Virus record (IMG/VR): IMGVR_UViG_3300029656_000143
Coordinates: 1 to 14,972 of that record
DNA length: 14,972 nt
Reading direction: 5' to 3' (one strand)
Source: a virus
Taxonomy: Duplodnaviria; Heunggongvirae; Uroviricota; Caudoviricetes
Shown piece after piece: positions 422 to 14,672 of the stretch. Positions within the stretch are counted from its first letter, which is position 1. Each line of letters opens with the position of its first letter. The position numbers were made by a program, and so were the translations under genes. The notes below the pieces were generated by a model. The model did no database searches. It saw only the letters and a program-made list of their open reading frames with translations, and was not told the DNA's origin.

Positions 422-1270
422 TCAGACTCGTGGCGGCAATACACCAGGATAATGCCGTGCAATAATATCATTCAGTTTTTCAACAAGGTCAGAACGCTTA
501 AAGACAATGTGTACGGTCCCTTTCTGGTAGCCACGCACCGTAAAATATTCCCCTTCTAACAACTTACCGACATTGTCGCCGTTCCCGAGAAATTCACCAT
601 ACTGCGCCCCGATGCTGTTCCTGAAGTCAGGAACGTTGCGCCCGTCCAGCAGATAAAAAGGACGTACCAGGTCATCCAGTACCTCCCGTCCGCTGCAGTC
701 CAGCGTCACACGCCCGTTACTCCAGCGGTACAGCATGTTTTCAATAATGATTCTCTTGCCCAGACGGCAGGGATTATTGGTTCTGTAATCCCATGACAAT
801 TTCCGGTAGACATCAATCAGTCCCTGTTCAAATGTCTGCATCTTGCTGGCATTCAGATGGCGGAATGTTGCCAGCACATTGTCCAGGGTGATTTCAGGAC
901 AGGTGTCGCTCATCAGCTGGCTATTCCACTCATCACACTGGCATGAACTCATGAAGGTGTACATGCCCGTATCTGTCATCAGGCGGTCCCAGATTTTCCG
1001 GTCGGCAAGACGGGTGATATTCCTTTTCGCTTCTTCCGGTTTATCTATGCGACGAACGGAATCAGTCACGCAGTCTTCAAACCCGTAAAGAAAAATATCA
1101 CCTGACGCATCGAGCAGAATCTTGCGCGCTGTCGCCAGGCATTCCATCGCCTGCATGAACAGTGCAATACCTTCGTTACGCTGCGCGATGATGCGGTCGA
1201 TAGCCACAGACGGAATAACATCTGTCGTGCCGGCAGTATTCAGGTCAGCAGTGGGTAAAGTCTGATTCAT
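422..1270 (-). CDS. orphan hypothetical protein, 282 aa (283 aa if the GTG at 1273 is used); family not recognised
   Basis: Long uninterrupted minus-strand ORF. ATG (plus-strand CAT at 1268-1270) is preceded on the coding strand by GAGGAGA 8 nt upstream. Globular-looking composition. Possible resemblance to DUF4942-type island proteins is a weak recollection only. Confidence 0.65.
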   Translation of the reverse strand: MNQTLPTADLNTAGTTDVIPSVAIDRIIAQRNEGIALFMQAMECLATARKILLDASGDIFLYGFEDCVTDSVRRIDKPEEAKRNITRLADRKIWDRLMTDTGMYTFMSSCQCDEWNSQLMSDTCPEITLDNVLATFRHLNASKMQTFEQGLIDVYRKLSWDYRTNNPCRLGKRIIIENMLYRWSNGRVTLDCSGREVLDDLVRPFYLLDGRNVPDFRNSIGAQYGEFLGNGDNVGKLLEGEYFTVRGYQKGTVHIVFKRSDLVEKLNDIIARHYPGVLPPRV

Positions 1271-1745
1271 CACATTGTCTCCTCATCGTCACGACTGCCG
1301 GGTCAGCCAGGTCATTTCCCGGAGGAGCGAAGCTCCTTCTGCCGTCCGGGTCTTCGGGGATTTCCCCGCAGTGGACCTTTCCGACGGGGGACGCTCACCA
1401 CGTCACGGGGCAGTTGTCCGGGGGCAGACGCAAAAGTTTTTGACGCCTGCGGCAAAAAGTTTTGTGGCTGGTACATCTCTCCCCTGGACGACTGAAACGG
1501 GATGTGGTCGTGTATGTACCCCCGGAAAGTTCGTCTGCGGAGAACGGGCCGCAGTGCGGCGGCAGACAGGCAGAGACAGCTGCGCCATCAGGCGCAGTGG
1601 CCTTACACACCGTAAGGTGTGCAGGGAGCGCCGCATCCGGCGCGACTGAAGAAAAACGACGGCACAACAATGGCATGTGGTGGTCACTGGCACACCACTC
1701 CCGCACAGGTGAAAACAGAGAAAACCGCACGACATTTACAACCAA

Positions 1746-2352: not shown

Positions 2353-2448
2353 TTGCGGTTCTCTGCGTATTACCGTGAAGGAGATCGGTGAGTAACATCG
2401 ATGGAGATCGGTTCGTGTCACTTTCACAGAACCGTTTTTAAATTACCT

Positions 2449-3198
2449 TCACTGATCTCCTTCGGTCAACGGAGATTGTATTTTCCGCATTGATTCTCCT
2501 TTAAGTTCGATCTTGATACTGCCATGAACCAGTCGATCTAGGATGGCATCCGCATGTGTGGAGTCTCCGATCATTTTGTACCAGTTTTCCACCGGCAACT
2601 GGCTCACTACGATGATTGAGCCTCGTTGGTACATCAGATCCACTATTTCCAGCAGGTCGCTACGCTGTTCTGATGAGAGAGGTTCCAGCCCCCAGTCATC
2701 CAGAAGCAGCAGATCGCTATTATTCAGCCTGGTCAAAAGTTTGCTGTATCTTCCATCAGCATGCCCCTGATAGCACTGTTCCATCAGCGCTTTAAGGCGA
2801 TAATAGTAGACCTTGTATCCCTGTCGGCAGGCATTATGACCAAGTGCACATGCCAGGAACGTTTTACCGCTGCCGGTGGCCCCGGTCAGTAAAATATTTT
2901 GTTTCAGGGTTAACCAGTTTCCCTGACTGAGTGAACGGATGAGGGCCCTGTCCAGCCCTCTATTGTTACGATAATCCAGCTTTGATAACTCAGCATTAAG
3001 TCTGAACCGTGCATGTTTGATCAGACGCTCTGCCTTCCTGTTTTCACGGCAGGTTAGTTCTTCTGCTGTCAGTAATGACAGGCGTTCTTCGAAGCCCAGC
3101 TCCTGGTATGTGCCCGGCTGAGCAAGTTGCTTTTTAAGCGCATCACGGAAGCCGGTGAGTTTAAGTGCGGTCAGTTGTTCGTAAAGATGATTCATCAT
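2449..3198 (-). CDS. istB: IS21-family transposition helper ATPase IstB, 249 aa
   Basis: Walker A GATGSGKT and Walker B LLLLDDWG in a DnaC-like AAA+ layout; lies immediately downstream of istA on the same strand. Confidence 0.9.
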   Translation of the reverse strand: MMNHLYEQLTALKLTGFRDALKKQLAQPGTYQELGFEERLSLLTAEELTCRENRKAERLIKHARFRLNAELSKLDYRNNRGLDRALIRSLSQGNWLTLKQNILLTGATGSGKTFLACALGHNACRQGYKVYYYRLKALMEQCYQGHADGRYSKLLTRLNNSDLLLLDDWGLEPLSSEQRSDLLEIVDLMYQRGSIIVVSQLPVENWYKMIGDSTHADAILDRLVHGSIKIELKGESMRKIQSPLTEGDQ

Positions 3199-3209
3199 TG
3201 GATCCCGTA

Positions 3210-4751
3210 TCAGTGGTAATACTCACTGCCGCGTACGTTTTCGTGTTCCATCGTGGATAACAGATCTGGTTTTGGATCCTGAACAGGTTGTTTATCCAGA
3301 CCTTTTTCCAGGATCGATTTAATACCTGACAGACGCCATACCTTTGTTTTCAGAGCTCTTGCACATGCTGCATTAAGTCTGGCTTTACTGTATTTTTTAT
3401 GAAGGTTCAGGAGTCCAAGGCAGAAGCGATAGCTTTGTTCCGGATGTGGACGAGAGTTCAGTATATGAAGCACATAACTATGAGTTTCACTGCCTATGTG
3501 CCCCGCCCATTCCAGAAGACGCTCTGGCGTCCAGGTGGCATGCTGTCGATGAGCTTCAGGCATGTGCTCGTTGCGGGTACTGTAGCCATAAGTACGCTTG
3601 CGCGGGTGCACAGCAACCTCCTGCCCCTGATTGAAGAGTCTTACCAGTTCTCCGGAGATCCATGCTTCCAGTTGCTGGCCTAACAGCGAACATGGAACCG
3701 AGTAGTAATGTTTGTCGATTTCCACGTGGTAATCGGCATGGACTCTGACTTTCTTCACCAGGGTGTAACTGTAACTGGCTTCAGGAAGAGGCTTCAGTGC
3801 GGGTTTATCAAGCTGGATGAAGAGTTCTGCACGTGAATAACCCAACTTCTGCATTATTTTGTTATTCAGTCTTTCCAGCAACTCCCGAATGCGCTGATTA
3901 AGCGATGCAAGGCTGTAGAAGATCTCATGCCTGATTCGGGCCATGATCCAGCGTTCAACAACCTGAACGCCAACTTCAGCTTTGGCTTTATCTTTCGGTT
4001 TACGTGGCCGCGCAGGCAAAACTGCGACATTATAATGCTCAAGCATCTGCTGGTAGGTAGGGTTAACGTCAGGATCATACTTACATGCCCTGGATGTGGC
4101 GCTTTTCAGATTGTCCGGAACAACAAGTTCAGGAACGCCACCCAACCACTGGAAGCAGCGAACATGACTCATCACCCAGTCTTCAAGCTGCTGAGACCAG
4201 GTGGCCTCTGCCCATGTGTAACTTGATGCCCCGAGAACAGCTACGATGACCTGAGCAGTTCTTATTTCTCCGGTCTCAGGGTCGGTAACGCCAACGGTAG
4301 GTCCACAGTAATCAACGAAAAGTTTTTCGCCAGCTTTATGTACCTGACGCATTGATGGTGAAGTGGTTTTGAGCCATTCACGGTACATCCGGCAGTAATG
4401 GTTATAGCTGTAAAAACCGCCTGGATTACGCTCACAGTATTCTTCCCAGAGTAGCTGCAGCGTCACGCATTTATTACGCAGTTCCCGGTGTACTGTAGCC
4501 CAGTCAGGCAGAGAGTGCTTCTTCATCTTAACCTGGGTCTGAAGGAACGCATGTTTTAGTTTTGTATCATCCCATCCTGTAGGTAAGGGCCACTGCTTTA
4601 TGCCAAGTTGAGCCGCCCGATTAGCATATCTGGATACAACGGAAGGGGAGATTGCAAGACTACGACCAATTTGTCGATGGCTGAGTCCAACACCGTATTT
4701 AAGCCTAAGAATTTCTTTAAGTTTTCTCATAGAAATTGGAACTGTTGGCAT
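3210..4751 (-). CDS. istA: IS21-family transposase IstA, 513 aa
   Basis: N-terminal HTH (LSHRQIGRSLAISPSVVSRY), central DDE-type integrase core, IS21-type C-terminal region; 11-bp gap to istB. Confidence 0.9.
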   Translation of the reverse strand: MPTVPISMRKLKEILRLKYGVGLSHRQIGRSLAISPSVVSRYANRAAQLGIKQWPLPTGWDDTKLKHAFLQTQVKMKKHSLPDWATVHRELRNKCVTLQLLWEEYCERNPGGFYSYNHYCRMYREWLKTTSPSMRQVHKAGEKLFVDYCGPTVGVTDPETGEIRTAQVIVAVLGASSYTWAEATWSQQLEDWVMSHVRCFQWLGGVPELVVPDNLKSATSRACKYDPDVNPTYQQMLEHYNVAVLPARPRKPKDKAKAEVGVQVVERWIMARIRHEIFYSLASLNQRIRELLERLNNKIMQKLGYSRAELFIQLDKPALKPLPEASYSYTLVKKVRVHADYHVEIDKHYYSVPCSLLGQQLEAWISGELVRLFNQGQEVAVHPRKRTYGYSTRNEHMPEAHRQHATWTPERLLEWAGHIGSETHSYVLHILNSRPHPEQSYRFCLGLLNLHKKYSKARLNAACARALKTKVWRLSGIKSILEKGLDKQPVQDPKPDLLSTMEHENVRGSEYYH

Positions 4752-4932
4752 AGGTATCCTTTACCGGAATGGCAAAAGATACAGATCAACACACCTGTGA
4801 AGTTCCAATAACATTGATGGAGATCACTGAATAACAAAATGAGTCAAAAGTGATCTCCATCGATGTTATTCAGCGATCTGTTCAAATGTTATTACCCGAT
4901 CTCGATGGAAGTTATTGAGTGATCTCCTTTCA

Positions 4933-8040: not shown

Positions 8041-8247
8041 TGATCTGCTAATGGTTATTCATGGGATAACTATGTTTTATATGTAATCCAACTCAGATGA
8101 ATTATTGATTCTGGATAATAACCGCAGAGCGGCATATACCCTGACAGGCAAATGTCCGCTTCTTGATCAAAGCAGACTGTCAGATTTGATAACTTTTGGG
8201 TTATGTAAATTGTCAGTCGGAAAATGAGTGTGTACAAATCAGGACAG

Positions 8248-13509: not shown

Positions 13510-14672
13510 TGCTGGATGCACTGACATTTGATGCAGGCAGTACGCTGACGCCGGATTACATGCTGATGCTCGACAGCAGGGATATTACCGGCAATATCAG
13601 CGACCGTCTGATGAGCATGACCCTGACGGATAACCGGGGCTTTGAGGCTGACCAGCTTGATATTGAACTGAGCGATGCCGACGGGCAGGTCGGGCTACCG
13701 ATTCGTGGCGCTGTCCTGACGGTGTATATCGGCTGGAAAGGTTTTGCCCTGGTATGCAAAGGGAAATTTACCGTTGATGAGGTTGAACACCGGGGCGCGC
13801 CGGATGTGGTTACCATCCGCGCCCGGAGTGCAGATTTTCGCGGGACGCTCAATTCCCGCCGTGAAGGCTCCTGGCATGACACCACGCTCGGTGCGATTGT
13901 TGAGGTGATAGCCTCCCGTAACAGGCTGGAAGCCAGTGTCGCGCCGTCACTGGCCGGAATTAAAATCCCGCACATCGACCAGTCGCAGGAGTCTGATGCA
14001 AAATTCCTGACCCGCCTTGCTGAACGCAACGGCGGTGAGGTGTCGGTAAAAATGGGAAAACTGTTGTTTCTCAAAGCGGGGCAGGGAGTGACGGCCAGCG
14101 GTAAAAAAATCCCGCAGATTACCATAACCCGCAGCGACGGCGACCGTCATCATTTTGCGATTGCTGACCGTGGAGCCTACACCGGCGTAACGGCAAAGTG
14201 GTTACACACCAAAGACCCGAAGCCGCAAAAGCAGAAGGTAAAACTGAAACGCAAAAAGAAAGAGAAACACCTGCGCGCACTGGAGCACCCCAAAGCGAAA
14301 CCGGTCACGCAGAAGAAAGCGCCAAAAGTACCGGAAGCGCGCGAAGGTGAATACATGGTCGGTGAGGCTGACAACGTTTTTGCCCTGACCACGGTTTATG
14401 CCACGAAAGCACAGGCCATGCGCGCCGCTCAGGCGAAGTGGGACAAACTGCAACGGGGCGTCGCGGAGTTTTCCATCAGCCTGGCTACCGGTCGGGCAGA
14501 TATTTACACGGAAACACCGGTTAAAGTGTCAGGCTTTAAGCGCGTCATAGACGAGCAGGACTGGACAATCACTAAGGTGACACATTTTCTGAATAATAGC
14601 GGCTTCACGACGTCCTTAGAGCTTGAGGTCAGGCTTTCTGATGTGGAGTACGAAACAGAAGATGATGGGTGA
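13509..14672 (+). CDS. D: tail protein D (P2 gpD), 387 aa
   Basis: ATG overlaps the U stop by 1 nt. Length and position as in P2. Contains a Lys-rich tract at about 14210-14345. Confidence 0.88.
   Translation: MLDALTFDAGSTLTPDYMLMLDSRDITGNISDRLMSMTLTDNRGFEADQLDIELSDADGQVGLPIRGAVLTVYIGWKGFALVCKGKFTVDEVEHRGAPDVVTIRARSADFRGTLNSRREGSWHDTTLGAIVEVIASRNRLEASVAPSLAGIKIPHIDQSQESDAKFLTRLAERNGGEVSVKMGKLLFLKAGQGVTASGKKIPQITITRSDGDRHHFAIADRGAYTGVTAKWLHTKDPKPQKQKVKLKRKKKEKHLRALEHPKAKPVTQKKAPKVPEAREGEYMVGEADNVFALTTVYATKAQAMRAAQAKWDKLQRGVAEFSISLATGRADIYTETPVKVSGFKRVIDEQDWTITKVTHFLNNSGFTTSLELEVRLSDVEYETEDDG

Follow-up and report, generated by a model that had tools for sequence, protein, structure and literature searches.

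The spacer holds the ssi1 element of IncI1 plasmids

Positions 1320-1648 of the window (the whole stretch of 14,972 nucleotides that was analysed) can be identified with high confidence as ssi1, the oriT-proximal Frpo/ssi class 1 single-stranded DNA (ssDNA) promoter of the IncI1 leading region. The assignment of this class 1 (Frpo-type) element, which folds on the plus strand, i.e. the transferred or T strand, is based on sequence identity. Of its 329 nucleotides, 326 are identical to "Frpo1" of ColIb-P9 (AJ238399.1:1459-1787), which was taken, like the other ColIb-P9 Frpo reference sequences, from Supplementary file 4 of Samuel et al. 2024; the other two ColIb-P9 copies, ssi2 and ssi3, show 81% and 79% identity. 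The identity to ssi1 of pESBL-EA11 (NC_018659.1) is 99.1% over 329 nt, and the core at 1415-1525 (the central 111 nt) aligns to ssiD/Frpo1 of the F plasmid with 74% identity over 116 columns. A BLAST comparison of ssiE (D90180) with the window gave no match. The element has been described before, and the window copy is near-identical to the published one, so that it is nothing new in itself.

Homologous sequences are abundant on plasmids. A megablast search with positions 1200-1900 matched 1426 records in 1347 complete E. coli genomes, with 2578 of the 2597 matching places located on plasmids and a median of two places per genome, and at least 5000 plasmids in PLSDB carry a homologue. The best match, plasmid pAMSC6, is 100% identical and contains two paralogues of the core 1318-1646 (ssi2 and ssi3, about 80-82% identical), which precede other leading operons; one of the two is immediately upstream of ssb. 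With three ssi-like copies the arrangement in pAMSC6 corresponds to that in ColIb-P9, whose three "ssi" repeats are homologous to the Frpo elements of F. In other work the leading operons of IncI plasmids have been numbered "ssi3-1", where ssi3 drives ssb-yfhA-psiB-psiA; because of this numbering and of its oriT-proximal position the window copy is taken to be ssi1.

Position relative to oriT and the flanking genes

In pAMSC6 the genes nikA and nikB and an R64-type oriT are located just left of window position 1, and the same holds for the 96% identical pESBL. The gene order in pAMSC6 is nikB, nikA, a 111-aa gene, a DUF4942 gene, the spacer and an HTH gene; ardA, psiA, psiB, a ParB-like gene and ssb follow at some distance and share the strand of the DUF4942 gene. 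The gene content and order identify the left part of the window as an IncI1 leading region. On the plus strand of pAMSC6, some 140 nt left of window position 1, the nick-region motif CACATCCTG/TCCCG is found, and the nick within it presumably lies at the position given by the MOBP/R64 oriT consensus. The distance between ssi1 and the oriT nick of IncI1 is about 1.6 kb. The presence of the oriT motif on the plus strand implies that the plus strand is the transferred strand and serves as the template of the minus-strand genes.

With regard to T-strand transcription, the DUF4942 gene (422-1270, minus strand, 283 aa; Pfam PF13708, E = 1.8e-51) is the first one downstream of ssi1. It is templated by that strand and is conserved together with the gene order in pAMSC6 and pESBL. 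Its start at 1270 is the RefSeq start of the identical gene in pAMSC6, the 283-aa open reading frame (ORF) itself running from 422 to 1273. The proximal 5' untranslated region (1271-1319, minus strand) contains a Shine-Dalgarno sequence, GAGGAG, at 1279-1284, 8 nt before the ATG at 1270.

At the other side of the element, positions 1649-1743 form a flank that is specific for ssi1, diverges from the tail module that ssi2, ssi3, Frpo1 and Frpo2 have in common, and separates the ssDNA promoter from the A/T-rich sequence that is the promoter region of the HTH gene (1850-2101). Within this A/T-rich region (1744-1848) a 38-nt repeat occurs twice, with 82% identity between the copies, and a palindrome AAGTGAA-N5-TTCACTT is present in both (1750-1769 and 1817-1836). 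The palindromes bracket hexamers resembling -35 and -10 boxes just upstream of the HTH gene, and the repeats are probably autoregulatory operators around its promoter. A promoter-like site on the minus strand, GTGAAA-16-TATCAT (1832-1805), points towards ssi1 and the DUF4942 gene.

Composition and coding potential of the spacer

The intergenic gap proper extends from 1271/1274 to 1849, between the minus-strand 283-aa ORF (422-1273) and a plus-strand 83-aa ORF (1850-2101), and the GC-rich structured element occupies 1320-1648 within it. The original prediction had singled out 1274-1745 as an unusually long, GC-rich and hairpin-dense spacer. This is a real, non-random feature: the G+C fraction is 0.597 in 1274-1745 compared with 0.507 in the whole window, and windows of 200 nt reach 0.58-0.62 between 1201 and 1700, as opposed to 0.39-0.54 in the flanks. 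The GC-richness of the ssDNA promoters of F has been noted in the literature. Perfect hairpins with a stem of at least 6 bp occur six times in 1274-1745, where 0.67 +/- 0.93 are expected on the basis of 500 dinucleotide-preserving shuffles, none of which reached six.

The individual hairpins named in that prediction were recovered to a varying extent. CTGCGCC-ATCA-GGCGCAG is located exactly at 1580-1597. CACACC-GTAA-GGTGTG was likewise correctly placed at 1606-1621, but its GNRA-type loop is not a conserved property, as ssi2 and ssi3 have GTCA in this position. The first copy of the proposed near-repeat, GCAAAAGTTTTT, is indeed found at 1430-1441, and the second, GCAAAAAGTTTT, lies at 1452-1463, one base away from where it had been put. 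In fact the two copies pair with each other as the arms of an A/T-rich helix, which forms the tip of a far larger hairpin; they can do so because each of them is nearly palindromic.

Six overlapping ORFs of 54-124 aa span 1274-1745 on both strands (1275-1649, 1462-1791 and 1619-1816 on the plus strand; 1395-1745, 1403-1735 and 1312-1476 on the minus strand). Their translations are enriched in Arg, Pro and Cys (up to 17%, 15% and 9%, respectively), and they had been regarded as artefacts of composition, an opinion that we share: the ORFs result from the high GC content and the scarcity of stop codons, a Pfam search of all ORFs overlapping the spacer gave no match, and no frame is kept among the paralogues. 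It had also been considered that the region could be a degraded gene. The long ORFs on both strands might be taken to indicate a decayed protein-coding gene, and RefSeq annotates a protein of 65 aa over the 3' tail of the element in many plasmids, so that one small protein, at 1619-1816, could even still be encoded. Against this, besides the lack of Pfam matches, ssi1, ssi2 and ssi3 differ by gaps of 1-3 nt (mostly 1-2 nt) that are scattered over the alignment and preserve no frame, and the longest open frame switches strand and phase between the copies. We therefore attach practically no probability to a coding origin. The 65-aa 'hypothetical protein' of RefSeq/PGAP (WP_001161108 in pAMSC6) corresponds to the plus-strand ORF 1619-1816, which starts within the 3' tail hairpins of ssi1, extends into the operator region and has no Pfam match; it is probably an over-call.

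Anatomy of the fold

Folded as ssDNA, the plus strand of 1300-1660 has a free energy of -99.8 kcal/mol (z = -6.59; none of 100 shuffles was as stable), and the 329-nt element alone reaches -98.3 kcal/mol. The minimum free energy (MFE) structure starts with a small 5' hairpin, AGGAGC-GAA-GCTCCT (1323-1337, plus strand), of which one A-T pair is replaced by a compensatory G-C pair in ssi2 (columns 8/17). It is followed by the main long imperfect hairpin of about 230 nt (1338-1566, plus strand), which is found in the MFE pair list and in the consensus fold of ssi1, ssi2 and ssi3. The MFE structure of ssi1 has two small side hairpins (1352-1371 and 1535-1554), where the consensus of the three copies is one continuous rod. 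The only differences from ssi1 of ColIb-P9 are found at 1531, 1533 and 1546. The substitutions at 1531 and 1533 change Watson-Crick pairs into G-T wobbles in the helix 1372-1377/1529-1534 and do not break the pairs.

The tip of the main hairpin (MFE pairs, plus strand) is the A/T-rich helix GCAAAAGTTTTTGAC / GGCAAAAAGTTTTGT (1425-1470, with the loop at 1446-1449). On the 3' side only, it is followed by a 10-nt bulge, GTACATCTCT (1471-1480), and a block equivalent to this bulge, (G)T-CAT-T, is present in all the IncI1, F and pSLT copies. Below it, the 5' arm CAGTTGTCCGGGGG (1411-1424) pairs with 1481-1494 to form a GC helix, GTCCGGGGG / CCCCTGGAC, under which the stem is rich in mismatches. The 3' arm of the GC helix includes a hexamer resembling a -35 box, TGGACG (1485-1490, plus strand, the non-template arm), which was identified from the alignment and by scanning, and further down the same arm a stretch rich in mismatches and bulges, TCGTGTATGTA (1508-1518, plus strand), is unpaired at 1509, 1511, 1514-1515 and 1518.

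The element ends with a 3' tail (1568-1648, plus strand) of three short MFE hairpins, at 1580-1597, 1606-1621 and 1628-1643, the stems of which are invariant among ssi1, ssi2 and ssi3, with variable loops. The motif of the last one, GCGC..GGCGCGAC, is also found behind Frpo1 and Frpo2 of F. A further 3' module, GGCGGCGCGACCGGAACGGTCGCTGCAAGCC, is located beyond the annotated element and is common to ssi2, ssi3, Frpo1 and Frpo2 (L001 17343-17400 and 23688-23745; L002, F, at about 8150-8240 and 13540-13630; minus strand); it is absent from ssi1.

Conservation, covariation and strand asymmetry

We aligned nine sequence types: ssi1, ssi2 and ssi3 of IncI1, Frpo1 and Frpo2 of F, the pSLT element, a Klebsiella/Serratia type and two metagenome variants. 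Compensatory changes were found in 12 of the 30 consensus pairs, 90.8% of the alignment cells are paired as compared with 36-44% when partners are slid, and the observed covariation score was reached by none of 500 shuffles, for a set of nine types that falls in only about three clades. Another eight compensatory pairs occur among ssi1, ssi2 and ssi3. A fold more stable than that of shuffled controls (z = -6.6) and covariation between homologous regions, both proposed as checks in the original prediction, are thus borne out.

The GC helix is almost invariant in sequence, its TGTCC and GGG being identical in all nine types, while the flanking helices, including the one below, covary. This combination suggests that the GC helix may be recognised in a sequence-specific manner. 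The lower stems of the IncI1 type and of the F type are unrelated in sequence, and both are rods of about 115-130 pairs. The A/T-rich tip helix is conserved in the IncI1, F and pSLT copies; in the variants from insect metagenomes (Frpo' 5 and 6), which keep GTCCGGGG / CCCT(G/A)GAC and the CATTT block, a short GC hairpin has taken its place. Not all members of the family, consequently, have the UP-like helix.

Several copies of the core are also present in other plasmids, and within one plasmid they are often identical or almost identical. An IncF plasmid of Klebsiella contains three identical ssDNA promoter cores (L126, 20139-20213, 25615-25689 and 28915-28989), and p628-KPC contains four (L127, 20168-20264, 22952-23048, 31301-31397 and 34687-34783), of which a single copy deviates, at no more than a few loop positions. 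Each of the four is found just upstream of a leading-region gene or operon, e.g. a DUF932 gene and ssb. Judged from the sequences, the identity of the cores within a plasmid suggests recent duplication or gene conversion. A scan of contigs with the pattern TGTCCKGGG-N(35-65)-CCYTGGAC proved to be too loose, with chance matches in GC-rich genomes, and the loci from L006 were ignored.

The two strands of the element are not equivalent. The complement of 1300-1660 folds with -86.1 kcal/mol (z = -6.0), so that the T strand is better by 14 kcal/mol, and a higher stability of the T strand, by 8-16 kcal/mol, was observed in ten out of ten family members tested. This advantage is partly due to G-T wobbles, which are conserved, for example, at columns 10/136 (eight of the nine types) and 28/115 (seven of the nine types).

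The asymmetry is relevant for the question whether the structure acts in RNA, either in the leader of the DUF4942 mRNA, as a riboregulator, or as an independent non-coding RNA; a structured 5' leader and a structured ncRNA had both been put forward originally. The region is situated directly upstream of the gene, it folds well on either strand (z = -6.6 and -6.0), and the 5' arm of the element probably does end up in the 5' leader of the DUF4942 transcript. Yet the strand with the sense of the mRNA folds 14 kcal/mol worse, and the conserved G-T pairs would become A-C mismatches in it. A transcription start inside the hairpin, as reported for the family, would moreover yield an RNA without one of the arms, and no promoter-like site was found on the plus strand in 1200-1900. 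Rfam gave no match at the gathering score in the window, and the best hit of 1274-1745 (E = 0.39, to a eukaryotic lncRNA model) is at chance level. An RNA-level role is for these reasons very improbable. The ncRNA proposal has to be abandoned; the leader proposal holds in so far as the region is structured, non-coding, regulatory and upstream of the 283-aa gene, but it is in DNA that the structure works.

Proposed mechanism and promoter layout

The analysis favours a function of ssi1 as a promoter in ssDNA. During conjugation the plus strand would enter the recipient with the 5' end leading, from a point some 140 nt left of the window. As long as it is single-stranded, ssi1 would fold into the long imperfect hairpin, the stem of which would mimic duplex promoter DNA, and the sigma-70 RNA polymerase of the host would bind it and, while the complementary strand has yet to be made, transcribe the T strand in leftward direction and into the DUF4942 gene. 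Synthesis of the second strand would then remove the hairpin and switch the promoter off, leaving a short pulse of expression. The 3' arm would be the non-template strand, with the polymerase moving from the tip to the base of the hairpin and on into the DUF4942 gene, and the start site would be on the 5' arm.

In the layout that we propose, the hexamer TGGACG (1485-1490) would represent the -35 box, with the arm 1411-1424 as its template-strand partner. Most relatives have TGGACA (five out of six positions of TTGACA) where ssi1 has TGGACG. If the bulge at 1471-1480 is extruded, the A/T-rich helix could stack directly on the GC helix, which would place the A/T tract about 46-56 bp upstream of the start, i.e. 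at the location of an UP element; the tip helix may accordingly be an UP-element-like part of the promoter. With low confidence, the stretch 1508-1518, located 17-22 nt downstream of the -35-like hexamer, can be put forward as a degenerate, pre-melted -10 box. A poor -10 box would also explain inactivity as duplex DNA. The putative spacer/-10 region is 2-4 nt longer in ssi1 than in ssi2 and ssi3. The layout fits the description of -10, -35 and UP elements in the Frpo hairpins by Samuel et al., as well as their Frpo2 construct, which ends just past the equivalent of window position ~1535.

Linear sigma-70 scans of both strands, which covered the window region and ten family members, revealed no canonical promoter in ssi1 and nothing with a score of at least 8/12, and the -35/-10 assignment is weak for that reason. 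Three other arrangements were considered and rejected. A -10 box in the bulge at 1471-1480 would place the -35 box in the hairpin loop. If TTGACG at 1440-1445 were the -35 box, a -10 box would not fit in ahead of the loop, and transcription would have to proceed around the hairpin tip. The sequence TTGACG-17-TTTTGT in the lower stem of F, finally, does not occur in the IncI1 elements, and the published Frpo2 construct does not include the sequence with which it pairs.

The experimental basis for this function comes from relatives of the window copy. Frpo, as ssDNA, forms a stem-loop that presents -35 and -10 boxes, and the RNA made by the host RNA polymerase can also prime DNA synthesis. For Frpo1 and Frpo2 in F a deletion analysis has been published. 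When an anti-CRISPR gene was expressed from Frpo in the leading T strand, conjugation was approximately 225-fold higher than for F without anti-CRISPR; placing the gene in the lagging region or on the complementary strand made it far less effective (Samuel et al.). For pESBL, Wen et al. 2025 describe RNA-seq of transconjugants in which six operons are strongly induced, each behind a large predicted hairpin; three of the six hairpins are ssi1, ssi2 and ssi3, denoted "class 1", and the start sites determined by 5'RACE for all six promoters are reported there to match the predictions. By analogy with these near-identical copies, ssi1 of the window is expected to have ssDNA promoter activity and to be transiently induced.

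The priming activity raises the possibility that the primary role of the element is that of a single-strand initiation site, which recruits RNA polymerase mainly to supply primers for complementary-strand synthesis, or slows this synthesis down, expression being secondary. Frpo was first isolated as ssiD, and its RNA primes DNA synthesis in vitro. According to a 2026 preprint, early conversion downstream of the ssp1/Frpo promoters of F is rifampicin-sensitive, and the hairpin of the ssDNA promoter ssp2 acts as a replication roadblock. Such a role, however, is compatible with promoter function and not an alternative to it, and in pESBL the highest transcription was obtained from the class 1 promoters (Wen et al. 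2025). As the primary role it is in our opinion hardly to be expected, and the preferred reading of ssi1 remains that of a promoter.

The 3' tail (1568-1648) has no counterpart in the Frpo2 fragment of the published anti-CRISPR construct. That it constitutes a separate, as yet undescribed module is a speculative idea, which we consider rather unlikely. Such a module might stall complementary-strand synthesis before it reaches the hairpin, or terminate transcripts that arrive on the T strand from the operon upstream, and, if real, it would prolong the period during which the element is single-stranded.

The right part of the window

The IncI1 sequence ends at position 2382, where the IS21-family element ISEc12 begins (2382-4879, with inverted repeats at 2382-2409 and 4852-4879; istB at 2449-3198 and istA at 3210-4751, both on the minus strand). 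From 4919 onwards the window contains the tail module of a P2-like prophage, which matches chromosomal prophages located beside pflB/focA in E. coli with 100% identity and comprises a 5'-truncated tail-fibre gene and genes for tail-fibre assembly, sheath, tube, tape measure, gpU, gpD and Ogr. The junction of plasmid, ISEc12 and prophage was found in none of the complete E. coli genomes or PLSDB plasmids searched. It reflects either an IS-mediated integration of the plasmid, in which case the arrangement would be Hfr-like and oriT would point into the prophage, or a collapse of the assembly at the IS.

Implications

Through ssDNA promoters, genes for anti-defence, SOS inhibition and establishment are expressed within minutes of entry, which helps resistance plasmids to spread. 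The ssi1 copy in the window does not extend this picture. Its recognition nevertheless explains the long, seemingly "empty" GC-rich spacer, flags the hypothetical ORF that PGAP calls over the tail as doubtful, and marks the DUF4942 gene as presumably the first gene to be expressed from an entering IncI1 plasmid.

Comparison with known systems

Recognition of folded ssDNA by an RNA polymerase, which then starts an RNA, is also known from the sso elements of rolling-circle plasmids and from the early promoters of phage N4. The sso elements serve in priming only, N4 uses its own virion polymerase, and the sequence families and the hosts differ from those of ssi1. The ssDNA promoters of classes 2 and 3 (upstream of ardA/klcA and of M.EcoGIX, and ssp2 of F) are likewise GC-rich T-strand hairpins that rebuild a -35 and a -10 box, but according to the literature they share no sequence homology with ssi1, ssi2 and ssi3, and the window contains no member of these classes.

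Frpo1 (ssiD) and Frpo2 of F, which are also known as ssp1a and ssp1b (Masai and Arai 1997; Couturier et al. 2023), share with ssi1 a tip domain of about 110 nt (TGTCCGGGG ... A/T helix ... CAT-T bulge ... CCCTGGAC) that is 74% identical, the rod-like ssDNA hairpin, the T-strand orientation upstream of leading genes and the strand asymmetry of folding. Unlike ssi1, they have a lower stem of unrelated sequence, and the genes under their control are ygeA/ygeB and ssb-psiB-psiA instead of a DUF4942 gene.

The closest known system is ssi1 of ColIb-P9, R64 and pESBL (Bates et al. 1999; Wen et al. 2025). Compared with these plasmids, the leading region in the window is cut short at 2382 by ISEc12, so that ssi2 and ssi3 are absent from it; apart from this and the three substitutions, the element itself, its distance from oriT and its neighbours (a MobC-like gene, the DUF4942 gene and the HTH gene) are the same.
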